Positions 27,145 to 54,062 of a stretch of DNA of 64,000 bases are shown piece by piece. The DNA is taken from assembly GCF_017348835.2 (NCBI RefSeq), contig NZ_CP071375.1. One strand, written 5' to 3'. Under the pieces are notes generated by a model that did not search any database, had not been told where the DNA came from, and saw only the letters and a program-made list of their open reading frames with translations. This DNA is from Escherichia coli (lineage in GTDB: Bacteria; Pseudomonadota; Gammaproteobacteria; Enterobacterales; Enterobacteriaceae). Numbering within the stretch: the first letter of the stretch is position 1; every line of letters starts with the position of its first letter. The translations under genes were made by a program, and so were the position numbers.

Positions 27145-27960
27145 TCAGCTGTTAAAAGGGGATGTGTTATCCAGCACCGCCTGAATCACATTCAGCGCGC
27201 CTTCGTGATTATTATCATCGGTAGCGTAACGGGCGATTTGTTTAATGTTTTCCGCAGCATTGCCCATCGCAAAGGAATAACGCGCCATTTTCAGCATCTC
27301 CGCATCGTTACCGCTGTCGCCAATCGCTACCACATTTTGCGGTGACAGATCCCAGCGTTTCAGTAATCGCGAAATACCGTTTGCTTTATGTAGACCGGGA
27401 ATAATCAGGTCGATAAAGCCAAAACCACTGGTAACGGGTTTCATAATGCCATCCAGCGCTATGTGCAGTTTGTCGATCACTAACGGGATTTGTTCATCCG
27501 GCAGGTTGAGCGAAAACTTGAACAGTACGTCGTCAATTTCCTGATAATCTTTTACAGGTTTCAGGCGATGGTAGTGTTTTGCCATCAGTGCGACGAATGC
27601 TTCGGGGGCATTTTCGCTGACATATGCACTTTGCAGACCGCAGGCGACAAAATTGAGTTGCTTATCTTTTAGCAACTCGCCAATAACAATCCGCGATTCA
27701 TGTCGGGTCAGTTCGCCGTGGAACAACTGCTTGCCATGTTCGTAAACCAGTGCACCGTTTTCCGCGACAAAAGAGATCTCATCCTTTAGCTCAGGAAAGA
27801 ACGAAATAAGCTGGTAATACTGATTACCGCTGGCGACAACGAACTTAATGCCGCGCTTTTTCAGTTCCTGATATTGCGCCATAAAACGTGGTTGGTTGTA
27901 CGTTTTGGCGTCGTTAAGAAAAGTACCGTCCATGTCTGTGACGATAACTTTTACGCTCAT
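27145..27960 (-). CDS. ybiV: Cof-type HAD sugar phosphatase YbiV
   Basis: 271-aa ORF with DxD motif (TDMDGT) at N-terminus and GDSGND. Confidence 0.9.
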
Positions 27961-28105
27961 AGGTGTGCTCCTGGCTCGAAAATGAAACCGTAACAGTGTA
28001 ATAACAATGTGACGCAGAGCACAAATTATATTTCGAATGAAAGTGAGAGTGAAATTGATGGTGTGAATGATTTAGCCCGGCGACGTCTCCGCCGGGCTGA
28101 GGGGA

Positions 28106-30538
28106 TTACAGCATATGTTCGGTACGGGCGATGATATCGTCCTGAGCGTCTGGAGAGAGCGCGGTGAAGAAGGCGGAATAACCCGCGACACGCACTACCA
28201 GATCGCGATACTGATCGGGATGTTTTTTCGCATCCAGCAGCGTTTCGCGGGAAACGATGTTGTACTGAATATGCCAGCCTTTATGCACTTCAAAGAAGGT
28301 GCGCAGCAGGATCATCAGTTTCTGCTTGTCAGATTCGTTCTCCAGCGTCGCCGGATTCAGTTTCTGGTTGAGCAACACGCCGCCGAGGATCGCTGCCGTA
28401 GGCAGTTTACCCACCGAGCCAATGACCGCAGTAGGGCCAAGATGATCAGTACCGGAGGCCGGGCTTGCGCCTTCTGCCAGCGGGGTGTGGGCTTTACGTC
28501 CGTCCGGCGTTGCCATCGTCTGTGCGCCAAACGGCACGTTAGCGGAGATAGACGACGTACCCGCGTAATAGTTGCCGCCAACCGGACCACGACCGTAGCG
28601 CGGGTTATGGTACTGTTTCAGTTCGTCGATATAGGTCTGATAAGCGCGAGCCAGCAGCGTATCGACAGTATCATCGTCGTTGCCGTACTTCGGCGCACCG
28701 TTAATCAGCCGCTGACGCAGCTGCTCGTGAGTCAGGCCGTCGAAGTCATCCGCCAGTGCGACAGCCAGCTGTTGCTGACCAATCGCGCCCTGTTCAAATA
28801 CCAGTTTCTTCACTGCCGCCAGGCTGTTGCCGAGGTTGGCAATACCCACCTGTAAGCCAGAAACCCAGTCATATTTCGCGCCGCCTTGCTTGATACTTTT
28901 CGCTCGCTCAATACAGTCATCCACCAGCGCCGAGCAGAGAATATCGTGCACGTTCTCTTCCAGCATGGTATCGACGACATATTCGATTTCGATCGATTTG
29001 CGGGTGTAGTAACGGATTTGGGTATCCCACGCGTCCATCACTTCATCGAAATTGTTAAAGTTACCCGCTGACAACGCTTTTTCTTGTGGCAGAAACACGT
29101 TGCCGCTGGTGGCATCGCGACCGCCTTCCAGCGCTGCCAGCATCACACGGGCGAAGTTGATAAAGCTCATCCCGGTGCAGCGATAGCCCCATTTACCGCC
29201 AACGGCGGTTTCGATACAGCCAATCGCTGCGTAGTCGTAAGCGTCCTGCGGTTCAATACCGAGTTTGATAAATTCCGGGATGACGATTTCGTCGTTGTTG
29301 AAGGCGGGCATCCCGAAGCCGCAGCGGATCACCTGTACGCAGGCGTCGAGGAAATCATTACTCATCCCCGCATGGTAACGCACGCTGAGGTTAGGCTGAG
29401 TCGAACGCAGGCGACCGCAGGATTCGAGGATCGCATAAGAGAGCGGATTCACCGCATCCATCGGCTGACCATCAACCAGATTTTGCCCGCCAATGGTGAC
29501 GTTCTGATACAGCGGACTTCCCGCGGAGGCTTTTGAGTGCGAGCCGGAGCGGATCTTGTTCACTTCCAGCAGTTTCAACCAGCAGCTATGCAGCAATTCG
29601 ATGGCGTGTTCGCGATCCAGCGTCTGGTTCAGTTCAACATCACGGCGATAGTACGGGTAGAGATACTGGTCCATACGACCAAACGACACCGAGTGACCGT
29701 TAGATTCAATCTGCAAAATCAACTGGATGAAGTAGCACAGTTGCAGCGCCTGCCAGAACGTCTGCGGCGGCTGGTGGGCGATGAGGTCGCAGTTTTCTGC
29801 CATCGCCAGCAGTTCATCACGGCGGCTTTCGCGGGTTTCAGTCGCTGCCATTTCACGCGCCAGGGCAGCGAAACGTTCAATGTGTTCACTGACTGCCACC
29901 AGCACGATATCAATCGCTTTCAGGAATTGCTCACCGTGTAAATCTTCCAGCACCGTCAGGTTGATGCGCGAGCGACGTTCCGCTACTTTCTCGCGCAGAC
30001 CATCAAGCCCTTTTTCCAGCAGCAGCGGGAAATTGACCGCCAGGTGCGCATCGCCGGAGGTCATATTGCCTTCCGCTTTAATGATGCCGGTCGCCAGCAG
30101 ACCTTTTTGCTCATCGGTAAACATGCCGTAGCAGCGATCCTGTACGGTCTGACCGCGCCACCACGGGCACACTTCATGCAGAACGCGTTTGTTCTCTTCG
30201 CTCACCGCAAAGCCAGCACCGGGACGATCTGCCAGATCATCAATCTCTTTTTCGATCCACGAGACGGTATATTCCGGGAAGATCGGCGCGGCGCGAACTT
30301 CGCTTGCCTGGTTGCCAATGATCAACTCATCGTGTTTGATCCAGATGGTGCGATTCGCCAGGTGATGCGCCAGTGCCAGCGCGCGACGTACCGGGATCGG
30401 CTTATCGAGATGTTGTTGATACATCTCGGTATAGTGCTGCGCGCGCTCGGTACAGACTGGCGGTTTCACAATATGCACCAGCGCATTTTTGTGCGCTTTA
30501 ATGCGGTCGCTGAGCGTGTCCAGTTTCAGTGTGGTCAT
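28106..30538 (-). CDS. ybiW: Glycyl-radical enzyme (pyruvate formate-lyase-like) YbiW
   Basis: 810-aa ORF; C-terminal glycyl-radical motif RVAGYSA. Confidence 0.9.
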   Translation of the reverse strand: MTTLKLDTLSDRIKAHKNALVHIVKPPVCTERAQHYTEMYQQHLDKPIPVRRALALAHHLANRTIWIKHDELIIGNQASEVRAAPIFPEYTVSWIEKEIDDLADRPGAGFAVSEENKRVLHEVCPWWRGQTVQDRCYGMFTDEQKGLLATGIIKAEGNMTSGDAHLAVNFPLLLEKGLDGLREKVAERRSRINLTVLEDLHGEQFLKAIDIVLVAVSEHIERFAALAREMAATETRESRRDELLAMAENCDLIAHQPPQTFWQALQLCYFIQLILQIESNGHSVSFGRMDQYLYPYYRRDVELNQTLDREHAIELLHSCWLKLLEVNKIRSGSHSKASAGSPLYQNVTIGGQNLVDGQPMDAVNPLSYAILESCGRLRSTQPNLSVRYHAGMSNDFLDACVQVIRCGFGMPAFNNDEIVIPEFIKLGIEPQDAYDYAAIGCIETAVGGKWGYRCTGMSFINFARVMLAALEGGRDATSGNVFLPQEKALSAGNFNNFDEVMDAWDTQIRYYTRKSIEIEYVVDTMLEENVHDILCSALVDDCIERAKSIKQGGAKYDWVSGLQVGIANLGNSLAAVKKLVFEQGAIGQQQLAVALADDFDGLTHEQLRQRLINGAPKYGNDDDTVDTLLARAYQTYIDELKQYHNPRYGRGPVGGNYYAGTSSISANVPFGAQTMATPDGRKAHTPLAEGASPASGTDHLGPTAVIGSVGKLPTAAILGGVLLNQKLNPATLENESDKQKLMILLRTFFEVHKGWHIQYNIVSRETLLDAKKHPDQYRDLVVRVAGYSAFFTALSPDAQDDIIARTEHML

Positions 30539-30543
30539 GGTTG

Positions 30544-31443
30544 TTATCCTCGTAAGGTCGTGGTTAACCCTTTCTGGCAGGCATACTGCTGGGCAAAGTC
30601 GAGCAGTTCTGGCGCATCAAGCGGTTTTTCCGGGGCGTCATAGGGCAGATTAAGTAAGTGATATTTGTTGATGCCCAGCGTGTGGTAGGGCAGGAAATGA
30701 ATTTCGCCAACGTGCAGCTCGTCGGCGGCAAAATCGGTAATGGCTTTTACAGAGGTTTCGTCGGCATTAAAGCCCTGAATCAGTGGCACGCGGATAATGA
30801 TTTTTTTGCCCGCTGCGGCGAGTTTTTTCAGGTTATCCAGCACCCTGGCGGCGTTACCGTCGGTCCACTGTTTAAACGGCGCGTTGGCAACGTGTTTTAA
30901 ATCGGCAAGAAACAGATCGATATAGGGCAGAGAAGGGGCAATATATTTCCACGGCACATGCAGACAGGTTTCTACCGCAGTATGAATGCCAGCCTCGTGG
31001 CTGGCTTGCAGTAGCGCCATCGCCATTTCCGGCTGCATAAACGGTTCACCGCCAGAAAGCGTTAAGCCGCCGCCGCTGCGATCGTAAAACGGTTTATCGC
31101 GCAGAACGGTCGCCATGATCTCCTCAACGCTTTTCACTTCCCCACACACGGTTAACGCCTGTGTCGGGCAGCAGTCGGTTAACGCCGTCAGATGCTCCGG
31201 GGTTAACTTTTCCCGATGAATAAGCAAACCATTCAACGCACGCTCAATCACGTCCGGCGCGGCCTTAGCGCACAGCTCGCAGCCTTCCAGACACAGTCGT
31301 GCGTCATACAACAGATCCTGCGTGCGGGCGCGGCTTTCCGGGTTCTGACACCAGCGGCAGCCCAGCGAACAGCCTTTAAGAAATACGACCGTGCGGATAC
31401 CGGGGCCATCATGGGTCGAGTAGCGCTGAATATTGAAAATCAT
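30544..31443 (-). CDS. ybiY: Glycyl-radical enzyme activating enzyme YbiY (radical SAM)
   Basis: CxxxCxxC radical-SAM motif (CSLGCRWC); start placed at second ATG (MIFNIQRYS) which follows GAGAGG RBS. Confidence 0.8.
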
Positions 31444-31573
31444 AGTTGCCTCTCTGTTTCGTTCAAACATTAAAATACTTTCGAATGAAAGTTAGATTGA
31501 TGTGCGTCAACTGTTCAGAGAGTTTTCCCGTGATAGTCTACATTCAGACAAAAAGTACATTTTGAGGATGGTT

Positions 31574-32236
31574 ATGGAACTGTATCTGGATACTTCAGAC
31601 GTTGTTGCGGTGAAGGCGCTGTCACGTATTTTTCCGCTGGCGGGTGTGACTACTAACCCAAGCATTATCGCCGCGGGTAAAAAACCGCTGGAGGTTGTGC
31701 TTCCGGAACTTCATGAAGCGATGGGCGGTCAGGGGCGTCTGTTTGCCCAGGTAATGGCTACCACTGCTGAAGGGATGGTGAATGACGCGCTTAAGCTGCG
31801 TTCTATTATTGCGGATATCGTGGTGAAAGTTCCGGTGACCGCCGAGGGGCTGGCAGCGATTAAGATGTTAAAAGCGGAAGGGATTCCGACGCTGGGAACC
31901 GCGGTATATGGCGCGGCACAAGGGCTGCTGTCGGCGCTGGCAGGTGCGGAATATGTTGCGCCTTACGTTAATCGTATTGATGCTCAGGGCGGTAGCGGCA
32001 TTCAGACTGTGACCGACTTACACCAGTTATTGAAAATGCATGCGCCGCAGGCGAAAGTGCTGGCAGCCAGTTTCAAAACCCCGCGTCAGGCGCTGGACTG
32101 CTTACTGGCAGGATGTGAATCAATTACTCTGCCGCTGGATGTCGCACAACAGATGATTAGCTATCCGGCGGTTGATGCCGCTGTGGCGAAGTTTGAGCAG
32201 GACTGGCAGGGAGCGTTTGGCAGAACGTCGATTTAA
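31574..32236 (+). CDS. fsaA: Fructose-6-phosphate aldolase 1
   Basis: ORF 31502..32236 trimmed to [10 protein letters not shown] start (220 aa), transaldolase-like. Confidence 0.9.
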
Positions 32237-32311
32237 CCGGACGTTCTGCATCCTCATAAATTGCTGATGACGTGGCGGAGTGCCGCGTCTTATCAGGCCT
32301 GAAGGTGGCAA

Positions 32312-33061
32312 TTACTGCCCGCACACCTCACACCCCGGATTACTCATCAGTTTCATTTCGCGAAACTGACAGGTCATCGCATCGTACATGACGATTTTCC
32401 CGCTGGCCGGTTTACCATAACCTGCCAGCAGTTTGATCGCTTCCATTGCCTGCAATGAACCAATTACGCCGATCAACGGTGCCATCACGCCTGCTTCTAC
32501 GCAGGTTAACGCGTTCTCGCCAAACAAACGGCTAAGGCAGCGATAGCACGGTTCGCCGTCCTGATAAGTGAAGACCGTGATTTGACCTTCCATACGAATT
32601 GCCGCGCCGGAAACCAGCGGCACCTTCGCGGCAAAACAGCCTGCGTTCAGTTGATTACGTACCGCAACGTTATCCGTACAGTCGAGCACCAGATCGTGTT
32701 CAGCAATCAATGCTGCAAGTTCTGCGTCATCCAGCAGTGCATTGACTGGCGTAATCGCGATATGTGGGTTGATCCGCGCCAGGGCGTCACGGGCGGATTC
32801 CACCTTCGGTTGCCCGACCGTGGCATCACTGTGCAGCGTCTGGCGTTGCAGATTCGAGAGCGAAACCGAGTCGAAGTCGAGCAGCGTCAGGTTGCCGACA
32901 CCGGCGCTTGCCAGATACTGCGAAGCTGCGCAGCCGAGTCCACCGAGGCCGACTACCAGCACACGAGAATCTTTTAGCGCCTCCTGACCGTCAAAATCAA
33001 AACCGCGCAGAATGATTTGCCGGTTGTAGCGCAGCATCTCCTGATCGCTGAGTTCCGCCAT
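32312..33061 (-). CDS. moeB: Molybdopterin-synthase adenylyltransferase MoeB
   Basis: 249-aa ORF with ThiF/MoeB GxGxxG (VVGLGGLG) and C-terminal CxxC pairs. Confidence 0.93.
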   Translation of the reverse strand: MAELSDQEMLRYNRQIILRGFDFDGQEALKDSRVLVVGLGGLGCAASQYLASAGVGNLTLLDFDSVSLSNLQRQTLHSDATVGQPKVESARDALARINPHIAITPVNALLDDAELAALIAEHDLVLDCTDNVAVRNQLNAGCFAAKVPLVSGAAIRMEGQITVFTYQDGEPCYRCLSRLFGENALTCVEAGVMAPLIGVIGSLQAMEAIKLLAGYGKPASGKIVMYDAMTCQFREMKLMSNPGCEVCGQ

Positions 33062-34296
33062 TACAGGCCTCCGAACAACGCGTTAAACGGTTCTACTTCC
33101 ACCCATTCGCCCACTTCCACATTGCCGCGATCGCGTTCCAGCACGATAAAGCAGTTGCCGAGGCTAAAGGAGCTAAATATATGTGAACCCTGATGTCCGG
33201 TGGTCGTCACTTCAAGTTCACCGTCGGCGTTGTGTTGCAGCACGCCGCGCTGGAAATCAAGACGTCCTGGCGTTTTTTTCAGGCGGGACGCTGTGCGTAC
33301 GCGCTGGCGCGCGGGCAGGCCGCTGGCGGTGTTGCCACTTAGTTTTGCCAGCAAAGGCTGTACCAGTTGATAGAAGGTCAGCGTCGCTGAAACCGGGTTG
33401 CCCGGCAGGCCGCAGAACCAGCTATTGCTGAGTTTACCGAACGCGAACGGTTTACCTGGTTTAATCGCCAGCTTCCAGAAGGCGATCTCCCCCAGCTCTT
33501 CAAGAATCGTTTTGGTGTAATCCGCCTCACCAACCGAAACACCACCGGAACTGATCACCACATCCGCCTGGCTGTCGGCTTCAATAAATGCGGCGCGCAG
33601 GGCATGTGGATCGTCGCGAATAATCCCTAAGTTGATTACTTCACAACCCAGCTGTTCTAACATCAGGTGTACGGCGAGACGGTTGGTATCGTAGATTTGG
33701 CCGTCGCCCAGCGGCTGACCGGGCAACTGGAGTTCATCACCGGTAGAAAAAAGCGCTACACGCACTTTACGAATCACCGGAACTTCGGCAATCCCCAGTG
33801 AAGCAATCACTGGCAGTTCAGCGGTAGTCAGGCGAGTCCCCGCCGGGAAAACAACCGCACCCGCAGAGATATCTTCACCACGACGGCGAATATTTTGCCC
33901 GCTACGCACTTCAGCAGTAAAACGCACGCCATTGTCCGTTTGTTCAGTCTGTTCCTGCATCACCACCGCTTCGCAGCCTTCCGGCACCGGCGCACCGGTC
34001 ATAATACGAATGCAGGTGCCCGCAGGCCATTCACCATGATACGGCTGACCGGCAAAGGATTTACCGGCAACGGGCAGCGGTTGCCCGGAGGCAATATCGG
34101 CTAAACGCACCGCGTAGCCGTCCATAGCGGAGTTATCAAACCCCGGGACATCCAGCGGCGAAACGACATCGCTCGCCAGAATACGACCAAAACACTGAAC
34201 CAGTGGCAGCGTTTCCTGGGCGGTCAGTGGGGTGACGCGAGAAAGCATCTCATTAAGCGCGGTGTCGAGCGACATCAATCCGGTGGTAAATTCCAT
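33061..34296 (-). CDS. moeA: Molybdopterin molybdotransferase MoeA
   Basis: 411-aa ORF; stop overlaps moeB start (TAATG). Confidence 0.93.
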
Positions 34297-34499
34297 GAAA
34301 ACACTCCTGCGGAGGCAAAATCGAATTTGCCTATTATGTCAGAAAAACGCCACAGACTGTATGCCACCTCGGGCGTAGCGCTGGGTCCTGCCTTTACATG
34401 CCATATCCATCTTTCTATATTCAAAAATTGAATGAGTAATTCATAAAAATTCTGATATTTATAGCAAAAGTGGCGAACCACCCTTAATGGACGAATACT

Positions 34500-35465
34500 A
34501 TGGGCAAAGCAGTCATTGCAATTCATGGTGGCGCAGGTGCAATTAGCCGCGCGCAGATGAGTCTGCAACAGGAATTACGCTACATCGAGGCGTTGTCTGC
34601 CATTGTTGAAACCGGGCAGAAAATGCTGGAAGCGGGCGAAAGTGCGCTGGATGTGGTGACGGAAGCGGTGCGTCTGCTGGAAGAGTGTCCACTGTTTAAC
34701 GCCGGAATTGGCGCTGTCTTTACGCGTGATGAAACCCATGAACTGGACGCCTGTGTGATGGATGGTAACACCCTGAAAGCCGGTGCGGTGGCGGGCGTTA
34801 GTCATCTGCGTAATCCGGTTCTTGCCGCCCGGCTGGTGATGGAGCAAAGCCCGCATGTGCTGATGATTGGCGAAGGGGCAGAAAATTTTGCGTTTGCTCA
34901 TGGCATGGAGCGCGTCTCACCGGAGATTTTCTCCACGCCTTTGCGTTATGAACAACTACTGGCAGCGCGCGAGGAAGGGGCAACAGTCCTCGACCATAGC
35001 GGTGCGCCACTGGATGAAAAACAGAAAATGGGCACCGTGGGGGCCGTGGCGTTGGATGTAGACGGCAATCTGGCGGCAGCCACGTCCACGGGCGGAATGA
35101 CCAATAAATTACCCGGACGAGTTGGCGATAGCCCCTTAGTGGGTGCCGGATGCTACGCCAATAATGCCAGTGTGGCGGTTTCTTGTACCGGCACGGGCGA
35201 AGTTTTCATCCGCGCGCTGGCGGCATATGACATCGCCGCGTTAATGGATTACGGCGGATTAAGTCTCGCGGAAGCCTGCGAGCGGGTAGTAATGGAAAAA
35301 CTCCCTGCGCTTGGCGGTAGCGGTGGCTTAATCGCTATCGACCATGAAGGGAATGTCGCGCTACCGTTTAACACCGAAGGAATGTATCGCGCCTGGGGCT
35401 ACGCAGGCGATACGCCAACCACCGGTATCTACCGTGAAAAAGGGGACACCGTTGCCACACAGTGA
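34500..35465 (+). CDS. iaaA: Isoaspartyl dipeptidase/asparaginase IaaA (Ntn hydrolase)
   Basis: 321-aa ORF with autoproteolytic GTVGAV site. Confidence 0.92.
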
Positions 35466-37323: not shown

Positions 37324-37342
37324 CATTCAGGCGGAGAATAAA

Positions 37343-38881: not shown

Positions 38882-38898
38882 GCAACGCAGGGAGTGGA

Positions 38899-39819
38899 AT
38901 GCTTAATTACGTTATCAAACGCTTACTGGGGTTGATTCCAACGCTGTTTATCGTCTCGGTGCTGGTGTTTTTATTTGTGCATATGCTGCCCGGCGATCCG
39001 GCGCGATTGATTGCCGGGCCCGAAGCTGATGCGCAGGTTATAGAACTGGTGCGTCAGCAGCTGGGGTTGGATCAGCCGCTGTATCACCAGTTCTGGCACT
39101 ATATCAGCAATGCTGTGCAGGGGGATTTTGGCCTGTCGATGGTGTCGCGTCGTCCGGTTGCCGATGAGATTGCCAGCCGCTTTATGCCAACGCTGTGGCT
39201 GACCATAACCAGTATGGTCTGGGCGGTGATATTTGGTATGGCGGCGGGAATTATCGCCGCCGTCTGGCGTAATCGTTGGCCGGATCGATTGAGTATGACC
39301 ATTGCGGTGTCGGGGATCTCGTTTCCGGCATTTGCTCTGGGGATGCTTTTAATTCAGGTATTCTCCGTTGAACTGGGCTGGCTGCCTACCGTGGGAGCAG
39401 ACAGTTGGCAGCACTACATTTTACCCTCCCTGACGCTCGGCGCGGCAGTGGCAGCCGTGATGGCGCGCTTTACCCGTGCGTCATTTGTCGACGTTTTAAG
39501 CGAAGATTATATGCGTACCGCGAGGGCGAAAGGGGTGAGCGAAACCTGGGTTGTCCTCAAACACGGGCTACGCAACGCGATGATCCCGGTAGTGACCATG
39601 ATGGGCTTACAGTTTGGCTTTTTGCTCGGTGGTTCTATCGTGGTGGAGAAAGTTTTCAACTGGCCCGGACTTGGACGCTTACTCGTTGGCTCCGTAGAAA
39701 TGCGCGATTACCCGGTGATTCAGGCGGAAATTCTGCTTTTCTCGCTGGAATTTATTCTTATCAACTTAGTGGTGGATGTGCTTTACGCCGCCATTAACCC
39801 GGCTATCAGGTACAAGTAA
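38899..39819 (+). CDS. gsiC: Glutathione ABC importer permease GsiC
   Basis: 306-aa membrane ORF, DppB/OppB-like. Confidence 0.92.
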
Positions 39820-39821
39820 GG

Positions 39822-43258: not shown

Positions 43259-43265
43259 TTTACGT

Positions 43266-44594: not shown

Positions 44595-44603
44595 TCATTA
44601 TTC

Positions 44604-44634
44604 GCAGGCCGGACAAATGATTTTGCCCGGCCTG
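44604..44634. terminator. Hairpin between convergent dgcI and rimO
   Basis: caggccgg...ccggcctg 8-bp stem with long loop. Confidence 0.4.
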
Positions 44635-44640
44635 AATTAA

Positions 44641-45966
44641 TTAAACCCGGCTACCCCACAAATCGTACTCATCGGCGTGCTCGACTTTCACACGCAGGAT
44701 ATCACCCGGCTTAACGTTGGTTTCACCATTGAGATAAACCGCACCGTCGATTTCCGGTGCATCTGCCATGCTGCGACCAATCGCGCCTTCTTCGTCCACT
44801 TCGTCGATAATCACCAGAATTTCACGGCCCACTTTTTCTTGCAGGCGCTCGGCGGAAATCTGCTGCTGCAGCTGCATGAAACGGTTCCAGCGTTCTTCTT
44901 TCACTTCTTCCGGAACCTGGTCAGGCAGGGCATTGGCGTCTGCACCTTCAACCGGGCTGTATTTAAAGCAGCCAACGCGATCCAGACGCGCTTCTTTCAG
45001 GAAGTCGAGTAGCATCTGGAAATCTTCTTCCGTCTCGCCAGGGAAGCCGACAATAAAGGTTGATCGTAGGGTCAGTTCCGGGCAGATTTCGCGCCACTGT
45101 TTGATGCGCGCCAGTTGGCGATCTACAGAACCCGGACGCTTCATCAGTTTGAGAATGCGCGGGCTGGCGTGCTGCAACGGAATGTCCAGATACGGCAGGA
45201 TTTTGCCTTCTGCCATCAGTGGGATGACGTCGTCCACATGCGGATAAGGGTAAACGTAGTGCAGACGTGTCCAGATCCCCAGTTTCGATAACTGTTCGCA
45301 CAGGCTGACCATGCTGGTTTTTACCGGCTCGCCGTTGTGGAAGCCAGTACGATGTTTAACATCAACGCCATAGGCGGAAGTATCCTGCGAGATCACCAGA
45401 ATCTCTTTAACGCCCGCATCTACCAGACGTTTCGCTTCACTTAACACTTCGCCAATCGGACGGCTCACCAGGTCGCCGCGCATAGACGGAATAATGCAGA
45501 AGGTGCAGCGGTGATTACAGCCTTCAGAAATTTTCAGATAGGCATAATGACGCGGCGTCAGTTTGACACCTTGTTCTGGCACCAGGCTCAGGAATGGGTT
45601 GTGTTTCGGTTTTGGCACGTAGTGATGAACGTGCTCCAGAACCTGCTCATAGCTATGAGGCCCGGTGATTTCCAGCACTTTCGGGTGGACTTCGCGGATC
45701 TGATCTTCTTTTGCCCCCAGACAACCGGTCACAATTACCTTGCCGTTTTCATTCAACGCTTCACCAATGGCTTCCAGTGATTCTTGTACCGCGCTGTCAA
45801 TAAAGCCGCAGGTGTTGACGATCACCATGTCCGCATCGTCATAGCTCGGTACCACGTCATAACCTTCAGTGCGTAGTTCGGTGAGAATACGCTCTGAATC
45901 GACAAGGTTTTTCGGACAGCCAAGGGAAACAAAGCCGATTTTCGGCTGGGGAGTTACTTTGCTCAT
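44641..45966 (-). CDS. rimO: Ribosomal protein S12 methylthiotransferase RimO
   Basis: 441-aa ORF; radical-SAM CxxxCxxC (CNHRCTFC) plus MTTase N-terminal cysteines. Confidence 0.93.
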
Positions 45967-46178
45967 AGCTTAAAAAATATTCAGTTACAGGAAAGGTCAG
46001 GGCAGGGATTCTACAGAGTTCTGGATAAAATTTGTATCGCAATCTCATTCGCTGGCGGAGGCGAAGGAAATGTAAATTTTGTTAATTCGGCGTGAAGAAT
46101 TGATCCTGGACAGCATTTTGCTCAAAAAATAGCCATACTATTTAATTGCAACAAGGCTGGAAAGAGGAGGATCGAAGT

Positions 46179-46562
46179 ATGTTCGTTGACAGACAGCGAA
46201 TCGATCTGCTGAACCGGTTGATCGACGCACGCGTTGACCTCGCCGCATACGTGCAACTGAGGAAGGCAAAAGGATACATGTCCGTCAGCGAAAGCAATCA
46301 TCTACGAGATAACTTTTTTAAACTGAATCGCGAACTGCACGATAAATCGCTGCGGTTGAATCTTCATCTGGATCAGGAAGAGTGGAGTGCTCTTCATCAT
46401 GCTGAAGAAGCATTAGCGACAGCCGCAGTATGTTTGATGAGTGGGCACCATGATTGCCCGACTGTTATTACCGTCAACGCCGATAAGCTTGAAAATTGTC
46501 TGATGAGCTTAACGCTGAGTATCCAGAGCCTGCAGAAGCACGCCATGCTTGAGAAGGCCTGA
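46179..46562 (+). CDS. bssR: Biofilm regulator BssR
   Basis: ORF 46146..46562 trimmed to MFVDRQRIDLL start (127 aa) after GAGGAGG RBS. Confidence 0.88.
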   Translation: MFVDRQRIDLLNRLIDARVDLAAYVQLRKAKGYMSVSESNHLRDNFFKLNRELHDKSLRLNLHLDQEEWSALHHAEEALATAAVCLMSGHHDCPTVITVNADKLENCLMSLTLSIQSLQKHAMLEKA

Positions 46563-46567
46563 AAACT

Positions 46568-46605
46568 AAGGGGGAGAAAGCGTCTCCCCCTTCATGTTTA
46601 AGTTT
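46568..46605 (+). terminator. Rho-independent terminator after bssR
   Basis: gggggagaaagcgtctccccc hairpin followed by T-rich tract. Confidence 0.6.
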
Positions 46606-46672
46606 TTGTAAAAATGAATTTGTTATCTCCTCCACTGACTACGCTTTAAGCCAGAGTCAATCCGGAGGCGTT

Positions 46673-47788
46673 ATGCATCGACAATCCTTTTTCCTTGTGC
46701 CCCTTATTTGTCTTTCTTCCGCTCTCTGGGCGGCTCCTGCAACGGTAAATGTCGAAGTACTGCAAGACAAACTCGACCATCCCTGGGCACTGGCCTTTTT
46801 ACCCGATAATCACGGTATGTTAATCACTCTGCGCGGCGGCGAGTTGCGTCACTGGCAAGCAGGAAAAGGATTATCTGCGCCGCTTTCCGGAGTTCCGGAC
46901 GTTTGGGCGCACGGGCAGGGCGGCCTGCTGGACGTGGTTTTAGCGCCTGATTTTGCTCAGTCTCGCCGCATCTGGTTAAGTTATTCCGAAGTTGGCGATG
47001 ATGGCAAAGCCGGAACTGCTGTGGGTTATGGCCGCTTAAGTGATGATCTCTCAAAAGTGACCGACTTCCGCACCGTCTTTCGCCAGATGCCAAAACTGTC
47101 TACCGGCAACCATTTTGGCGGGCGGCTGGTATTCGACGGTAAAGGTTATCTTTTTGTTGCTCTGGGCGAAAACAATCAGCGCTCGACGGCGCAGGATCTG
47201 GATAAATTACAGGGCAAACTGGTGCGTCTGACCGACCTGGGCGAAATCCCGGATGATAATCCTTTTATAAAGGAATCCGGTGTGCGCGCCGAGATCTGGT
47301 CTTATGGCATTCGTAATCCGCAAGGAATGGCGATGAATCCGTGGAGTAATGCACTGTGGCTGAATGAACATGGCCCGCGCGGTGGTGATGAAATTAATAT
47401 CCCGCAAAAAGGCAAAAACTACGGCTGGCCGCTGGCAACCTGGGGAATCAACTATTCAGGCTTTAAGATACCGGAAGCGAAAGGGGAGATCGTCGCGGGG
47501 ACCGAGCAACCTGTTTTTTACTGGAAAGATTCGCCCGCCGTGAGCGGCATGGCCTTCTATAACAGCGATAAATTCCCCCGGTGGCAGCAAAAATTATTTA
47601 TTGGCGCGCTGAAAGATAAAGATGTCATTGTGATGAGCGTCAACGGCGACAAAGTGACAGAAGATGGCCGTATTTTAACGGACAGAGGGCAGCGAATTCG
47701 TGATGTTCGCACCGGACCCGACGGTTATTTATACGTTCTCACCGACGAGTCCAGTGGGGAATTACTTAAAGTTAGCCCACGCAATTAG
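46673..47788 (+). CDS. yliI: Soluble aldose sugar dehydrogenase YliI (PQQ-dependent beta-propeller)
   Basis: 371-aa ORF with signal peptide. Confidence 0.9.
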
Positions 47789-48411
47789 CTAACGGGAATC
47801 ATCACCACTTTGCGCACTGCGGGGCGTTCAGTGAGTTGCTGATACCAGCGTTGCAGATTTGGACGCGGTGTCCAGGTCAGGCCAACGTTAAACAAATTGT
47901 AGATGAACGGTGCGATAGCGATATCGCCCACACCAAACTCGTCGCCAGAGAACCATTTTACTTTTGCCAGTTCCGCATCGAGCAGGGCAAACAGGGCGTC
48001 GCACTCTTTGCAACTGGCATCAATGGCGGCCTGATCGCGCTCTTCGGGTGGTGTTCTGACTAATCCCATCAGGATCCCGCGATGAGCATTACTGAGTGTC
48101 TGGTTTGCCCAGTCCATCCATTTTTCCGCTTCCGCACGACGTGCCGGTGAGTCGATCCACAGACGTTTTTGCCCGTACTGTGCCGCCAGATAGCGGACAA
48201 TGGCGTTTGATTCCCAAAGAATGAGATCACTTTCGTCGTCACGCAACAACGGCACCAGCCCGTTAGGGTTCATCGCCAGAAAATCAGCATCGTGATTTAT
48301 CCCAAACTCACGGCCCGCGAGAATTTGCTCATAAGGTAGTTCCAGTTCTTCGAGCGTCAGCAATACTTTTTTTACGTTAGTTGAATTATTCCGACCCCAC
48401 AGCGTAATCAT
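47785..48411 (-). CDS. gstB: Glutathione S-transferase GstB
   Basis: ORF 47785..48417 trimmed to [10 protein letters not shown] start (208 aa). Confidence 0.88.
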
Positions 48412-48658
48412 ACTCACCCCTTTTCCGACAGGCAGCCACAGGCTGAACAGGACTCCGATGGTGAAGTAAAGTTAACTTTTAAGCAACAGCTGGCAAAAAA
48501 ATGACACCAGGAGCAGCGAAGCGGCAGGATATTGCATAAACTTTAAAAACTTTACCAACTTACGGTTTCTTTAAGTTTGTGTGTGCGTTATTAATCACCG
48601 AACTTATCATACGGCGATATAACGTATTTTTTTTTGAATGGATACTCGGGTGGCATTT

Positions 48659-49861
48659 ATGACGCAATACTCCTCTCTCCTTCGTGGTCTTGCAGCGGGT
48701 TCTGCATTTTTATTCCTTTTTGCCCCAACGGCATTCGCGGCGGAACAAACCGTTGAAGCGCCGAGCGTGGATGCGCGTGCATGGATTTTAATGGATTACG
48801 CCAGCGGTAAAGTGCTGGCAGAAGGCAATGCGGATGAGAAACTGGATCCCGCGAGCCTGACTAAAATCATGACCAGCTATGTGGTTGGGCAGGCGCTTAA
48901 GGCCGATAAGATTAAACTCACCGATATGGTGACGGTCGGTAAAGATGCCTGGGCGACGGGAAATCCGGCACTGCGTGGTTCATCAGTAATGTTCCTCAAA
49001 CCGGGCGATCAGGTTTCGGTGGCAGACTTGAACAAAGGTGTGATTATCCAGTCCGGTAATGACGCCTGTATTGCGCTGGCCGATTACGTTGCCGGGAGCC
49101 AGGAGTCATTTATTGGTTTGATGAATGGTTATGCCAAAAAACTGGGTCTGACCAACACTACCTTCCAGACGGTGCACGGTCTGGATGCGCCGGGGCAGTT
49201 CAGTACCGCGCGCGATATGGCATTGCTGGGCAAAGCATTGATCCACGATGTGCCGGAAGAGTACGCCATTCATAAAGAGAAAGAGTTCACCTTCAACAAA
49301 ATTCGTCAGCCTAACCGTAACCGTCTGCTGTGGAGCAGTAATCTGAATGTTGATGGCATGAAGACAGGAACCACGGCAGGCGCGGGATATAATCTGGTTG
49401 CTTCGGCTACCCAGGGCGATATGCGTTTAATCTCCGTAGTGCTGGGGGCGAAAACTGACCGTATCCGTTTTAATGAGTCTGAGAAATTATTGACCTGGGG
49501 TTTCCGCTTCTTTGAAACCGTGACGCCAATTAAACCTGATGCCACCTTTGTGACTCAGCGCGTCTGGTTTGGTGATAAGAGCGAAGTGAATCTCGGGGCA
49601 GGCGAAGCGGGATCAGTGACCATACCGCGTGGGCAGCTGAAAAACCTGAAGGCGAGCTACACGTTAACGGAACCGCAGCTTACCGCACCGCTGAAAAAAG
49701 GTCAGGTTGTCGGCACCATTGATTTCCAGCTTAACGGTAAATCCATTGAGCAGCGTCCGCTGATCGTGATGGAAAATGTGGAGGAGGGCGGATTCTTTGG
49801 TCGGATGTGGGATTTCGTGATGATGAAATTCCATCAGTGGTTCGGCAGCTGGTTCTCTTAA
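48659..49861 (+). CDS. dacC: D-alanyl-D-alanine carboxypeptidase DacC (PBP6)
   Basis: ORF 48638..49861 trimmed to [14 protein letters not shown] start (400 aa); SxxK active site (SLTK). Confidence 0.9.
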
Positions 49862-49869
49862 TCTTCTGA

Positions 49870-49900
49870 TAACCGGATGGCGCGAAACGTCATCCGGTTA
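49870..49900. terminator. Hairpin between convergent dacC and deoR
   Basis: taaccggatg/gcgcgaaacgt/catccggtta stem-loop; no clear U-tract. Confidence 0.4.
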
Positions 49901-49907
49901 TACATCA

Positions 49908-50666
49908 TTAATACATCAACTTAATACGCTGCGTCTGCGCGTACTTCACATACTCATCTTCCGGGCAACAATCGCTCACCACAATATCAAAGCGTTTCAG
50001 GTCACCCATGCGCGCCGGACGCACCTTGCCAAATTTACTGTGGTCGACAACCAGCACATGCTTTTGCGCCATCGACATGGCCCAGTGTTTTACCGGCAAC
50101 TCTTCAAGATTAAAACAGGTAGCGCCTTTACTGACATGCACACCCGCCGCAGAATAAAAAGCGATATCCGGGCAAAAATTATTCAGCGTTTGCTGAAAAT
50201 CGATGGGTTTGAAAATGGCGTTGCTGGCGTGAAATTCACCACCGCAAAGAAACGCGCGGCAATGGGGTTTCTCTTTCAGCGCCAGAAAGGTATTTAGCGA
50301 ATAACAAACGGCGGTGAAAGGTATTTCATTATCAATCGCTTCAATAATCCACGGCGTGGTGGTGCCACAGTCAAAAAAGAGGGTCTGATCGGGTTCTACC
50401 AGCGTCGCAGCCAGTTTTGCCGCCCGGCGTTTTTCTTCCACTAGGCGGGATTTTTGATCGCTTAACAGGTAATGGCTGGCACTGCGCGGTTCCAGAACAA
50501 TATAGCCGCCGAGCAAAACGACGGGCGCACTGTGGTTGTTCAAATCGCGACGAATCGTCATCTCCGAAACCCCAAGCAGGGCGGCGGCGTCTTTAAGATG
50601 TAACTTATCGCTGCGTTTTAATTCTTGCAGCAGCTGCCCGATACGCTCTTCGCGACGTGTTTCCAT
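49908..50666 (-). CDS. deoR: DNA-binding transcriptional repressor DeoR
   Basis: 252-aa ORF with N-terminal HTH. Confidence 0.92.
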   Translation of the reverse strand: METRREERIGQLLQELKRSDKLHLKDAAALLGVSEMTIRRDLNNHSAPVVLLGGYIVLEPRSASHYLLSDQKSRLVEEKRRAAKLAATLVEPDQTLFFDCGTTTPWIIEAIDNEIPFTAVCYSLNTFLALKEKPHCRAFLCGGEFHASNAIFKPIDFQQTLNNFCPDIAFYSAAGVHVSKGATCFNLEELPVKHWAMSMAQKHVLVVDHSKFGKVRPARMGDLKRFDIVVSDCCPEDEYVKYAQTQRIKLMY

Positions 50667-50723
50667 AATCCCTCTGAATAGTTATTGAAGCGAGCCGCTC
50701 AATACTACACTTTTTAGCAGAGA

Positions 50724-51320
50724 TCAGTCACGCACCCAGCCTTTGCGGATCGGTAATGCAAAACAGAAGCGATACCACGATTGCAGACGTTGATAGAGTT
50801 TATGCCCTGTCGCTTGCCAGATAATCTGGGCGCTAAGGCAGCCAATCATACCTGCCAGCAATCCACCGAGCATATCCAGCGGCCAGTGGACGCCAAGATA
50901 AACGCGCGACCAGGCAATGACGAAGGCCAGCGCCATTAAAAGTGAGCCGGACCACAGGCGATGCCAGCATAAAAATGCCAGTGCAAAGGTGAAAATCACC
51001 GTACCGTGGTCGCTTGGGAATGAGTCATCCGCCGCATGATGCAGGAAGTTATAGCCGATATTTTCGACAAATGGTCGGTCGTGCGGAAAAAGATGTCCCA
51101 TCGTCCAGGACACAAACAGGCTGACCGCCAGCGCGATAGCGATTTTTATCACCAGTTGCCGTTGTGCTGTAAGCCCCCACAACCAAAGTACCGCGGCCAG
51201 CAGCGGCACCACGGTAATCAAATCTTTAGCAATAAAAATCGCCAACGAGATCATCCACGGAGCCGAGTCTGGCGTCGCGTTAATAAGAGAGAATAGAGAG
51301 AGATTCAAATTTTCCAGCAT
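50724..51320 (-). CDS. ybjG: Undecaprenyl-pyrophosphate phosphatase YbjG (PAP2 family)
   Basis: ORF 50724..51335 trimmed to MLENLNLSLF start (198 aa). Confidence 0.85.
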   Translation of the reverse strand: MLENLNLSLFSLINATPDSAPWMISLAIFIAKDLITVVPLLAAVLWLWGLTAQRQLVIKIAIALAVSLFVSWTMGHLFPHDRPFVENIGYNFLHHAADDSFPSDHGTVIFTFALAFLCWHRLWSGSLLMALAFVIAWSRVYLGVHWPLDMLGGLLAGMIGCLSAQIIWQATGHKLYQRLQSWYRFCFALPIRKGWVRD

Positions 51321-51604
51321 AACTTCCCGACGCAAAGTGATTAAAAGGGAGCCAATACAGGCAAGTCGTTGAGAATAAAGTGCAGGTTAAACTGGGTAAA
51401 GCGGCATCGTCTTATTTCCCTCAAGCGGCCTGTTTACGGTGGGTGATTGTAACGGGCATAGGTTAAATAAAACTTAAAGAAAGCGTAGCTATACTCGCAA
51501 TAATGTAAGAATGTGCTTAACCGCGGTTTCAGCTACAAAATTCGCTTTCTCGTTAGCTGCGCTTTTATTAAACTTTGCGCGATTATTATTGGCGAAGAAA
51601 TTGC

Positions 51605-52837
51605 ATGCAAAATAAATTAGCTTCCGGTGCCAGGCTTGGACGTCAGGCGTTACTTTTCCCTCTTTGTCTGGTGCTGTACGAATTTTCAACCTATATCGGC
51701 AACGATATGATTCAACCCGGTATGTTGGCCGTGGTGGAACAATATCAGGCGGGCATTGATTGGGTTCCTACTTCGATGACCGCATATCTGGCGGGCGGGA
51801 TGTTTTTACAATGGCTCCTGGGGCCGCTGTCGGATCGTATTGGTCGCCGTCCGGTGATGCTGGCGGGAGTGGTGTGGTTTATTGTCACCTGTCTGGCAAT
51901 ATTACTGGCGCAAAACATTGAACAATTCACCCTGTTGCGCTTCTTGCAGGGCATAAGCCTCTGTTTCATTGGCGCTGTGGGATACGCCGCAATTCAGGAA
52001 TCCTTCGAAGAGGCGGTTTGTATCAAGATCACCGCGCTGATGGCGAACGTGGCGCTGATTGCTCCGCTACTTGGTCCGCTGGTGGGCGCGGCGTGGATCC
52101 ATATGCTGCCCTGGGAAGGGATGTTCGTCTTGTTTGCCGCATTGGCAGCGATCTCCTTTTTCGGTCTACAACGAGCCATGCCTGAAACCGCCACGCGTAT
52201 AGGCGAGAAACTGTCACTGAAAGAACTCGGTCGTGACTATAAGCTGGTGCTGAAGAACGGCCGCTTTGTGGCGGGGGCGCTGGCGCTGGGATTCGTTAGC
52301 CTGCCGTTGCTGGCGTGGATCGCCCAGTCGCCGATTATCATCATTACCGGCGAGCAGTTGAGCAGCTATGAATATGGCTTGCTGCAAGTGCCTATTTTCG
52401 GGGCGTTAATTGCGGGTAACTTGCTGTTAGCGCGTCTGACCTCGCGCCGCACCGTACGTTCGCTGATTATTATGGGCGGCTGGCCGATTATGATTGGTCT
52501 GTTGGTCGCTGCTGCGGCAACGGTTATCTCATCGCACGCGTATTTATGGATGACTGCCGGGTTAAGTATTTATGCTTTCGGTATTGGTCTGGCGAATGCG
52601 GGACTGGTGCGATTAACCCTGTTTGCCAGCGATATGAGTAAAGGTACGGTTTCTGCGGCGATGGGAATGCTGCAAATGCTGATCTTTACCGTCGGTATTG
52701 AAATCAGCAAACATGCCTGGCTGAACGGGGGCAACGGACTGTTTAATCTCTTCAACCTTGTCAACGGAATTTTGTGGCTGTCGCTGATGGTTATCTTTTT
52801 AAAAGATAAACAGATGGGAAATTCTCACGAAGGGTAA
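51605..52837 (+). CDS. mdfA: Multidrug efflux MFS transporter MdfA (Cmr)
   Basis: ORF 51575..52837 trimmed to [20 protein letters not shown] start (410 aa). Confidence 0.9.
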
Positions 52838-52841
52838 AAAA

Positions 52842-52871
52842 ATGCCTGATTGCTTTGTACGATCAGGCATT
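52842..52871. terminator. Bidirectional terminator between mdfA and ybjH
   Basis: 10-bp stem aatgcctgat/atcaggcatt with A-run upstream (T-run on minus strand). Confidence 0.6.
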
Positions 52872-52877
52872 CTCGAA

Positions 52878-53162
52878 TTAATGGTGATGGTCGTCAATCT
52901 GGTGTTCGATAACCATCCCTTCACCTACGCTGGCAAGATGGCGAACATAAGGATGCGGGCGGTAAGCCGGAGCTGGCGCAGGAGCCACATAGACGGTTTG
53001 CGGCACAGTCGCGACGCTGACCGCTTGTGGAACGCTGACTGAATCAGGAACCACAACCACTTTGTATCCACTCGGCACATCGACGGTGACACTTTGCGCC
53101 ATCGCCACACCAGTAAAGCCCATTAAAAGCGCGCCCAACAGTAGACAATTTTTCATAATCAT
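52878..53162 (-). CDS. ybjH: Small secreted protein YbjH, function unknown
   Basis: 94-aa ORF with N-terminal signal peptide. Confidence 0.8.
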   Translation of the reverse strand: MIMKNCLLLGALLMGFTGVAMAQSVTVDVPSGYKVVVVPDSVSVPQAVSVATVPQTVYVAPAPAPAYRPHPYVRHLASVGEGMVIEHQIDDHHH

Positions 53163-53246
53163 TTCGCCTGAAATAATGCAGCGGGTTAATTTCCGCGAAT
53201 TATGCAGCCTTCATTCAGGTATTGTGTTGCCGGGCGTGCTGCCGTT

Positions 53247-54062
53247 TTATTGGTTAAATGGCGCTTCGTGTTTAAGCACTTTATCGATCACATCCAGTAC
53301 GCCTTCACGGTTATTGGAGCCTGCCCGGTATTTTGCCGCTGCGACGACCGCGCTGCCGGCATTTTCCATTGCAAAACTAAAGCCTGCCTGACGCAGCATC
53401 TCAATATCGTTACCGCCATCGCCAAAGACCACCACTTCGCTGTCGTCTATTCCCCATAATTTCTGCAGTTGGCGAAGGCCATTGGCTTTATGTACGCCGG
53501 GGATAATCAGATCGATGCTGCCGTTGCCGGTGTGGACCGGCACCATAATATCGCCGATGGCCTCATGTAATGCTTTTTGTACTTGTGGAATCAGTTCATC
53601 GGAAAGATTCAGGCCAAACTTAAAGAAGATATCTTCTAAGTTGTCAAAGTTATCGACGTATTCCAGACGGTGATAATACATTTCCGCCACCGTTTTCATG
53701 GCATCGTCATATTTTTTGAGCGTATAGGCGCTATTTTTTCCACAGGCAATAATTTCCACTTCCGGGCGCGTCAGCAAATGTTCCACGACAGTAGTAAACG
53801 CATCCTTCGACAGCTCGCCATTAAAAACATCTTTGCCTTCACTCACTACCCAGCCGCCGTTTTCAGCCACAAAGGCAATTTCATTAGCAATTTCAGGGAA
53901 GAAAGAGATCAACTGATAATATTGATTCCCGCTGGCGACCACAAAGCGAATGCCTTGTGCTTTCATTTGCTGATACTGAGCCATAAACCGCTCACGGTTA
54001 TAGGTTTTTTGATCGCTTAAGAAAGTACCATCCATGTCTACCGCAATTAATTTAATGCTCAT
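53247..54062 (-). CDS. ybjI: Cof-type HAD phosphatase YbjI
   Basis: 271/272-aa ORF (two adjacent ATG) with DMDGT motif; paralog of ybiV. Confidence 0.85.
   Translation of the reverse strand: MSIKLIAVDMDGTFLSDQKTYNRERFMAQYQQMKAQGIRFVVASGNQYYQLISFFPEIANEIAFVAENGGWVVSEGKDVFNGELSKDAFTTVVEHLLTRPEVEIIACGKNSAYTLKKYDDAMKTVAEMYYHRLEYVDNFDNLEDIFFKFGLNLSDELIPQVQKALHEAIGDIMVPVHTGNGSIDLIIPGVHKANGLRQLQKLWGIDDSEVVVFGDGGNDIEMLRQAGFSFAMENAGSAVVAAAKYRAGSNNREGVLDVIDKVLKHEAPFNQ

Follow-up and report, generated by a model that had tools for sequence, protein, structure and literature searches.

Two genes in a stretch of Escherichia coli DNA, ybiV and ybjI, encode HAD phosphatases of the same family and equal length but stand in different neighbourhoods, one beside a pair of glycyl-radical genes and the other overlapping a transporter gene, which raises the question of whether the two enzymes serve distinct substrates and are coupled to different pathways or transport systems. 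We hold with high confidence that they are HAD-IIB phosphatases derived from an old duplication, with diverged cap domains, sugar phosphates as substrates for YbiV and FMN/ArPP for YbjI, ybjI lying in an operon and ybiV apart. The present analysis supplies the evidence on identity of the sequences, family, fold, divergence of the cap, synteny and regulatory sequence elements; substrate preferences, operon and regulators are taken from the literature. Both genes are already known: they have names and RefSeq annotations and have been through biochemical screens, YbiV has crystal structures, and both are in metabolic-engineering use; the discovery value is small.

Two Cof-type phosphatases in one window

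The window, that is the whole 64,000-nucleotide stretch analysed, belongs to the E. coli chromosome, and its ybiV and ybjI regions are 100% identical to those of strains PE164 and F2_81. Its arrangement is that of F2_81, the PE164 annotation being colinear with it only from ybiU rightwards; an 8.9-kb island of PE164 (recombinase, methyltransferase and HNH genes), considered as a feature of the window, was rejected, as the window does not contain it. The two genes are:

27145..27960, minus strand: ybiV (supH), Cof-type HAD-IIB sugar phosphatase, 271 aa (ORF, translation, RefSeq 'sugar-phosphatase YbiV', TIGR00099, PDB 1RLM/2HF2)
53247..54062, minus strand: ybjI, Cof-type HAD-IIB FMN / 5-amino-6-(5-phospho-D-ribitylamino)uracil phosphatase, 271 aa (ORF, translation, RefSeq name, TIGR00099, AF2 model)

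A first-pass annotation made from the letters alone had named these genes, assigned them to the Cof-type HAD family as paralogs and described two 271-aa proteins sharing a DMDGT(F)L and a GDxxND motif, and all of this holds. Both ORFs are present and each translates to 271 aa, with DMDGTFL at residues 9-15 (DMDGT at 9-13) and with the second motif at 214-219, as GDSGND in YbiV and GDGGND in YbjI. A TTG lies in frame at 54065, one codon 5' of the ybjI ATG at 54062 that RefSeq takes as the start. RefSeq annotation and profile scores agree on names and family: both proteins exceed the cutoffs of Pfam Hydrolase_3 and of TIGR00099 (Cof-type HAD-IIB, curated cutoff 137 bits), the latter matched end to end with 222.1 bits for YbiV and 193.4 for YbjI. 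Pairwise BLASTP aligns them without gaps at 141/270 identities (52%, E 5e-103), and no third HAD paralog was found in the window by phmmer against the ORFs of 100 aa or more in all six frames, only the ybiV and ybjI products matching.

The narrower NCBIfam equivalogs searched (YcsE-related, YidA, YigL, Cof and YbhA) were all matched below cutoff and none of them names YbiV or YbjI. Against NF045966 (YcsE-related riboflavin metabolism phosphatase, cutoff 220 bits), the second-best NCBIfam match of both proteins, YbiV scores 109.9 and YbjI 98.1, and against the YidA-type NF007806 (cutoff 273) and YigL NF008213 (cutoff 386) the scores are 80-87 and 43-54 bits; YidA and YigL are separate Cof-type paralogs.

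The catalytic core is intact in both. HAD motif I, DxDx(T/V), is present with D9, D11 and T13, and motifs II, III and IV with S44, K192, G214, D215, N218 and D219, all invariant in 35 orthologs of the two clades. We infer from this that Asp9 would be the nucleophile and Asp11 the acid/base of the DMDGT motif, with Ser44, Lys192 and Asp215/Asp219 of GDxxND completing the core. Because this full core is kept in both proteins, YbiV and YbjI are expected to hydrolyse phosphate esters through an aspartyl-phosphate, and Mg2+-dependent phosphomonoesterase activity by that route is reported for both enzymes (PMC7017516, PMC8475336); the title of PDB 1RLO likewise names an analogue of the YbiV phospho-aspartyl intermediate.

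PDB 1RLM is a structure of YbiV (E 7e-180 against 1RLM/2HF2). For YbjI, the AF2 model (pLDDT 94.5) superposes on 1RLM with a TM of 0.97 and an rmsd of 1.0 A, and on other HAD-IIB structures with a TM of about 0.8. Between motifs II and III the model has an alpha/beta C2B cap, an insert of about 100 residues placed between the core strand 63-66 and K192 and composed of helices 86-96, 120-129 and 155-169 together with six strands.

Divergence of the cap domain

The duplication that gave rise to the pair would be older than the radiation of the Enterobacteriaceae. The orthologs fall into two clean clades of 94 sequences each, spanning Salmonella, Citrobacter, Enterobacter, Klebsiella and Buttiauxella, and within the window the two genes are 57% identical in DNA, with 38% identity at third codon positions and the same codon at 69 of the 141 identical residues. 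Recent gene conversion between ybiV and ybjI is excluded by this DNA identity and by the saturated third positions.

A comparison of the cap domains, suggested in the first-pass annotation as a check on its proposal of distinct substrates, bears that proposal out: the cap is 40% identical and the core 60% (Fisher p = 0.002), a difference that holds for four choices of boundary. At ten positions each clade has its own fixed residue, and six of these sites lie in the cap; from YbiV to YbjI the changes are L33M, A70G, L71W, H81N, V105I, L109K, A118Y, M126A, H129Y and P207D. The main difference between the enzymes would then reside in the inserted C2B cap, the domain that covers the active site and selects the leaving group.

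Published profiles also differ. In secondary citations, FMN and ArPP are given as the preferred substrates of YbjI, with YigB as a second enzyme acting on them (PMC8475336, PMC7017516), and hexose and pentose phosphates, including M6P, G6P and psicose-6-P, as substrates of YbiV (PMC12801476, PMC10576766). YbiV would accordingly be a promiscuous sugar phosphatase and YbjI an enzyme with a preference for FMN and the riboflavin intermediate ArPP. Since both the caps and the reported preferences differ, the pair does not display the identical caps and indistinguishable profiles that would speak against distinct substrates. The fixed cap substitutions presumably underlie the difference in specificity, and this short list may set the choice between sugar phosphates and FMN/ArPP. 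The pair offers a tidy case of HAD phosphatase diversification, with a frozen core and a changing cap.

It might instead be argued that ybiV and ybjI are redundant duplicates whose differing neighbourhoods are accidents of genome history, given that HAD phosphatases have wide and overlapping substrate ranges (PMC8475336) and that these two are equally long, align without gaps and have the same catalytic core. We regard this as very improbable, as both copies are kept across the family and as core genes of the species (5422 or more of 5426 E. coli genomes for each), and as the significantly greater divergence of the cap, the ten clade-fixed positions and the reported differences in substrate preference all argue against it. 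An apparently variable presence of ybiV, drawn from a 3-kb query covered to at least 80% in only 4330/5425 genomes, proved wrong, ybiV itself being found in 5425/5426; the shortfall most likely reflects the absence of the neighbouring ybiU, directly observed only in EcN.

Gene neighbourhoods and coupling

Around ybiV the following features were recorded:

25728..26993, minus strand: ybiU (DUF1479 / Gig2-like), downstream of ybiV, accessory in E. coli (ORF, RefSeq; missing from EcN)
27117..27137, minus strand: terminator-like hairpin with T-rich tail, 8 nt past the ybiV stop (8 pairs, 6 GC; Delta-G -14.5)
28025..28053, minus strand: candidate sigma-70 site TTCACT-17-TATAAT in the ybiW-ybiV spacer (consensus match only, 10/12)
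28074..28098, minus strand: GC-rich 10-bp hairpin lacking a T-run, directly 3' of the ybiW stop (Delta-G -20.0 kcal/mol)
28106..30538, minus strand: ybiW, glycyl radical enzyme upstream of ybiV (ORF, RefSeq)
30544..31443, minus strand: ybiY, glycyl-radical activating enzyme (RefSeq annotation mapped from PE164)
31574..32236, plus strand: fsa (fsaA), fructose-6-phosphate aldolase, divergent from ybiY (RefSeq annotation mapped from PE164)

ybiV does lie beside the glycyl-radical pair: it follows the ybiW stop by 145 nt, ybiY being the gene before ybiW, and the ybiV ATG is preceded by an AGGAG Shine-Dalgarno sequence. This adjacency suggests another reading, in which YbiV is a dedicated part of a radical 1,5-anhydroglucitol pathway formed by ybiY, ybiW and fsa and could act, for example, as a relief valve for excess 1,5-anhydroglucitol-6-phosphate or 1-deoxyfructose-6-phosphate; by analogy with metabolite repair by human G6PC3, such a safety valve in a radical-glycolysis cluster could be its bacterial counterpart. 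In its favour, the adjacency of ybiV to ybiW is shared by E. coli, Enterobacter and Salmonella. YciT was located by ChIP-exo at three genes, ybiV, ybiY and fsaA, for which the authors propose a single uncharacterised pathway (PMC8464067). The ybiW product is, moreover, reported in PMC12441222, which cites Ma et al. JACS 2024, as the enzyme cleaving 1,5-anhydroglucitol-6-phosphate, a hexitol-6-phosphate chemically near the hexose-6-phosphates known for YbiV. Against this, ybiV has promoter-like and terminator-like signals of its own, although as consensus matches these are about as common as chance would give (3 observed, 1.8 and 1.7 expected); it is inverted in place relative to ybiW in Salmonella, it is kept with ybiU in a Siccibacter that has neither ybiW, ybiY nor fsa, and the Cronobacter homolog is located elsewhere. 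Among the papers searched, none connects YbiV with anhydroglucitol. We therefore consider a dedicated pathway role improbable; from the promoter-like and terminator-like sites and the Salmonella inversion, we infer that ybiV is its own, monocistronic transcription unit, which would be independently transcribed and parked beside the ybiY-ybiW-fsa anhydroglucitol cluster.

The ybjI locus has a different organisation:

54062..55270, minus strand: ybjJ, MFS transporter, first gene of the operon (ORF, RefSeq; its TGA stop and the ybjI ATG have one base in common)
55314..55333, palindrome: RcdA box TTGTGTACATTTGTACACAA, operator of ybjJI, in the ybjJ-rcdA spacer (exact match, 0 expected by chance; sequence from PMC3535384)
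55354..55890, plus strand: rcdA (ybjK), TetR-family repressor of ybjJI, divergent (RefSeq, TetR-family matches, PMC3535384)

The overlap of ybjI with ybjJ is real, the ybjJ TGA (54064..54062) and the ybjI ATG (54062..54060) forming TGATG. The two genes have the features of an RcdA-regulon operon, being co-directional and abutting with an exact RcdA operator in the divergent spacer, and their co-transcription and repression by RcdA have been established by Northern blot and reporter assay (PMC3535384). Within this RcdA-repressed operon, translation of ybjI would be coupled to that of the MFS pump gene ybjJ. The module of a TetR gene divergent from an MFS-HAD pair is kept in all five genera checked (E. 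coli, Klebsiella, Cedecea, Buttiauxella and Salmonella), with overlap or near-abutment persisting even where flanking genes differ. It appears to travel as a unit across the Enterobacteriaceae, whereas the tie of ybiV to the glycyl-radical cluster is loose.

Such conservation also favours a reading in which the main role of YbjI is tied to the YbjJ pump and not to riboflavin synthesis, YbjI neutralising a trapped phosphorylated flavin, pyrimidine or xenobiotic and YbjJ expelling the product. The same reading draws on RcdA repression and on the induction or selection of the operon by imidazolium ionic-liquid stress (PMC3535384, PMC4077768, PMC5691611), on the lack of riboflavin auxotrophy in a single ybjI deletion (PMC7017516), and on the 90% fall in riboflavin titre upon ybjI overexpression, when yigB overexpression raised it (PMC11731478). 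However, no YbjJ substrate is reported, the YbjJ family search gave nothing informative beyond MFS, and ArPP and FMN activity of YbjI in vitro is reported, so that we find such a dephosphorylate-and-export role doubtful. It is equally unlikely, in our estimation, that one or both phosphatases are wired to their neighbours in undescribed ways, YbiV as safety valve or YbjI-YbjJ as dephosphorylation followed by export; in the latter case the clade-fixed aromatic and basic cap residues W71, K109, Y118 and Y129 of YbjI would bind a flavin- or pyrimidine-like ring. Of the coupling to neighbours that had been proposed, the part that stands is at the level of expression, through the RcdA operon (PMC3535384) and YciT (PMC8464067); comparison between genera points both ways in the case of ybiV.

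Comparison with known systems

All 271 residues of the window's YbiV match E. coli K-12 YbiV/SupH (PDB 1RLM, 1RLO, 1RLT and 2HF2), which has the same RefSeq name and position; the genes show allelic differences only, with DNA about 98.9% identical. YbjI corresponds to E. coli WP_001331955.1, the window gene being 100% identical in DNA to the PE164/F2_81 copy and set in the same ybjJ-ybjI-ybjH context. YbjI itself has no crystal structure, and its nearest solved structure is that of YbiV, at 52% identity.

The Bacillus subtilis YcsE-type phosphatases (NF045966) are HAD-IIB enzymes like the pair, with ArPP/FMN activity reported as for YbjI (PMC8475336). Neither protein belongs to this equivalog, because 110 and 98 bits fall far under the 220-bit cutoff, and the model fails to separate the paralogs, because YbiV outscores YbjI. 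Beyond YbiV and YbjI themselves, the closest homolog with a solved structure is Streptococcus mutans SMU.1108c (PDB 3L7Y; TM 0.94), an uncharacterised protein at 37% identity. It is about equally similar to YbiV (173.5 bits) and YbjI (176.4 bits), which is consistent with its being an outgroup to the duplication.

Fold and catalytic residues of the two phosphatases

Over the 3-kb stretches around ybiV and ybjI, the DNA has 100% identity with strains PE164 and F2_81. The window belongs to the E. coli chromosome and, judged by colinearity further left, is arranged in the F2_81 manner. The ORF list places the two genes as follows:

27145..27960, minus strand: ybiV, RefSeq 'sugar-phosphatase YbiV'
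53247..54065, minus strand: ybjI open reading frame, RefSeq '5-amino-6-(5-phospho-D-ribitylamino)uracil phosphatase'

The RefSeq start of ybjI is the ATG at 54062, the end coordinate used in the first-pass annotation. As had been read there, both translated proteins have 271 aa, with a DMDGTFL nucleophile motif at residues 9-15 and a GDxxND motif at residues 214-219 (GDSGND or GDGGND), and their paralogy was confirmed by pairwise protein alignment (52% identity, zero gaps, E 5e-103). Using phmmer on all ORFs of 100 aa or more in the six frames, we found no third HAD homolog in the window.

Both proteins match Pfam Hydrolase_3 from end to end, with E values of about 1e-54, and score above the curated TIGR00099 cutoff (Cof-type HAD-IIB; 222 bits for YbiV and 193 for YbjI, cutoff 137). 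They fall below every cutoff of the YcsE-related, YidA, YigL, Cof/HMP-PP and YbhA equivalog models and thus form their own lineage within the Cof-type HAD-IIB subfamily. PDB entries 1RLM, 1RLO, 1RLT and 2HF2 are the YbiV protein (E 7e-180), which is also the top PDB relative of YbjI, a protein without a structure of its own. We modelled YbjI with AlphaFold2 from an alignment of 35 sequences; the model (mean pLDDT 94.5, pTM 0.91) superposes on 1RLM with a TM-score of 0.97 and an rmsd of 1.0 A over 269 columns. In this model the expected Rossmann-like core bears motifs I-IV, and the C2B cap, an alpha/beta insert about 100 residues long, comes after core strand 63-66 and before the helix starting at K192. 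Residues D9, D11, T13, S44, K192, D215, N218 and D219 are invariant among the orthologs of both proteins, which are therefore expected to be active phosphatases; by analogy with established HAD enzymology, they should use the standard aspartyl-phosphate mechanism.

Age of the duplication and divergence of the caps

The two genes share 57% DNA identity, and 38% at third codon positions, and of the 141 identical residues just 69 are encoded by the same codon; synonymous sites are saturated, and nothing points to recent gene conversion between the genes. Database searches run for each protein returned about 2000 relatives. The 186 full-length sequences among the matches listed and the two proteins of the window fall into two sharply separated clades, each with 94 members. 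Sequences of the YbiV clade have at least 61% identity to YbiV and no more than 54% to YbjI; those of the YbjI clade have at least 68% to YbjI and no more than 60% to YbiV. Both clades include Escherichia, Salmonella, Citrobacter, Enterobacter, Klebsiella, Buttiauxella and others, and 3L7Y, the homolog from S. mutans, resembles YbiV and YbjI to the same degree; it follows that the split is older than the radiation of the Enterobacteriaceae. In E. coli the two are species-core genes (ybiV in 5425 and ybjI in 5422 of 5426 complete genomes). In strain MB30 (NZ_CP073968.1) the ybjI match is divided between two places, the best covering only 54%, and a 'hypothetical protein' is annotated there; in this one strain the gene is probably disrupted by an insertion.

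Aligning the cap domains had been proposed as a check on substrate divergence. If the cap is set at residues 81-185, YbiV and YbjI are 40% identical in the cap versus 60% in the core (Fisher p = 0.002; N-terminal part of the core 70%, C-terminal part 50%), and this contrast holds under four alternative boundaries (p 0.0002 to 0.007). After each clade had been thinned to below 92% identity (64 and 71 sequences), 86 positions were identically conserved in both, and 10 were at least 90% conserved within each clade yet different between them (YbiV to YbjI: L33M, A70G, L71W, H81N, V105I, L109K, A118Y, M126A, H129Y, P207D). The cap holds six of these 10, and positions 70 and 71 lie at the core-cap hinge, directly after the conserved VAENG. 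Relative to YbiV, YbjI gains W71, K109, Y118 and Y129, residues that would suit stacking and charge contacts with a flavin or pyrimidine ring and a ribityl chain. Mean top-residue frequency is lower in the cap than in the core of the YbjI clade (0.71 vs 0.84) and equal in the YbiV clade (0.82 for both), so that constraint on the cap is asymmetric between the clades.

Chromosomal settings of ybiV and ybjI

The gene ybiV lies beside the glycyl-radical pair, as first noted, with ybiW 145 nt upstream and ybiU 145-151 nt downstream, depending on the ybiU start chosen. Features around it are:

25728..26993: ybiU, DUF1479 / Gig2-like
28074..28098, minus strand: 10-bp GC hairpin directly after the ybiW stop (-20 kcal/mol, no T-run)

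Instead of terminating transcription, this hairpin could stabilise the mRNA 3' end or be a REP-like element. It is followed by a promoter-like TTCACT-17-TATAAT (10/12 matches) and an AGGAG ribosome-binding site, and the ybiV stop by an 8-bp hairpin (-14.5 kcal/mol) with a T-rich tail. These putative signals are consensus matches whose density is near background; they agree with the separate YciT ChIP-exo peaks at ybiV, ybiY and fsaA (PMC8464067).

Synteny of ybiV across genera is mixed. Enterobacter keeps fsa divergent from ybiY-ybiW-ybiV-ybiU. In Salmonella enterica (L008 4474..10225) ybiV, and no other gene, is flipped at its site between ybiU and ybiW, and there is no fsa between ybiY and moeB. 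In Siccibacter turicensis (L007 5019..8235) ybiV-ybiU is the immediate neighbour of moeB, and none of ybiW, ybiY and fsa is present: here the phosphatase gene outlives the glycyl-radical cluster. Cronobacter carries a 62%-identical homolog of YbiV at an unrelated locus. By this pattern, ybiV is a stable resident of its chromosomal spot for which membership in the radical-enzyme operon is not obligatory.

Within E. coli, ybiU is accessory. In strain EcN ybiT abuts ybiV directly, and about 1095 of 5425 genomes cover less than 80% of a ybiU-ybiV-ybiW query, although 5425 have ybiV itself. In PE164 (L001 9451..17361) ldtB and ybiT are separated by an island about 8.9 kb long, which carries two genes of the recombinase family and genes for a DNA methyltransferase, an HNH endonuclease and an HTH protein. 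This island is missing from the window, which is arranged as in F2_81.

The overlap of ybjI with the MFS gene ybjJ proved to be a single base (TGATG), common to the ybjJ stop (54064..54062) and the ybjI start (54062..54060). Upstream lies a regulatory site:

55314..55333: RcdA-box palindrome TTGTGTACATTTGTACACAA, separating ybjJ from rcdA, the divergent TetR gene; an exact match to the published box

None would be expected by chance. RcdA binds at that box, and the 'ybjJI operon' is derepressed in an rcdA mutant (Shimada et al., PMC3535384); an imidazolium ionic liquid induces ybjJ (PMC4077768), and loss of rcdA improves tolerance to imidazolium ionic-liquid-type compounds (PMC5691611). Family matches of YbjJ were uninformative. 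The divergent TetR gene and the MFS-HAD pair are kept together in all four other genera checked, the MFS/HAD junction being a 1-nt overlap in Klebsiella, an 11-nt gap in Cedecea and 4-nt overlaps in Buttiauxella and Salmonella; since the trio persists also where its outer neighbours are different, it acts as one unit. In Cedecea and Buttiauxella it is flanked by ybiR-like and mntR-like genes, not ybjH/mdfA, and in E. coli ybiR/mntR-type genes lie tens of kilobases away, so either the module or its surroundings were rearranged as a block.

Comparison with published functions

FMN is used 'preferentially' by YbjI and YigB (Kuznetsova 2006, cited in PMC8475336), and both enzymes remove the phosphate of ArPP and of FMN (Haase 2013, cited in PMC7017516); by the latter source, single deletion of ybjI or yigB does not cause riboflavin auxotrophy. 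Riboflavin titre falls by about 90% on ybjI overexpression and rises with yigB (PMC11731478). YbiV, an early case of activity-based metabolomics (PMC4197876), has been employed as a hexose-phosphate phosphatase on mannose-6-P (PMC12801476) and psicose-6-P (PMC10576766). The caps and the published profiles both differ, in line with the distinct substrates at which the first-pass annotation had hinted; its observation is correct in all details and its hedged interpretation right.

Two readings, both unproven, are the only ones with some novelty: that YbiV is functionally wired to the anhydroglucitol cluster, or YbjI to YbjJ-mediated export. YbiW is reported to cleave 1,5-anhydroglucitol-6-phosphate, giving 1-deoxyfructose-6-phosphate (Ma et al. 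2024, summarised in PMC12441222); our literature search found no paper connecting YbiV to anhydroglucitol, and the comparative evidence leans against such wiring. The finding as a whole is textbook E. coli annotation, already known, and the answer on substrates is already in the literature.
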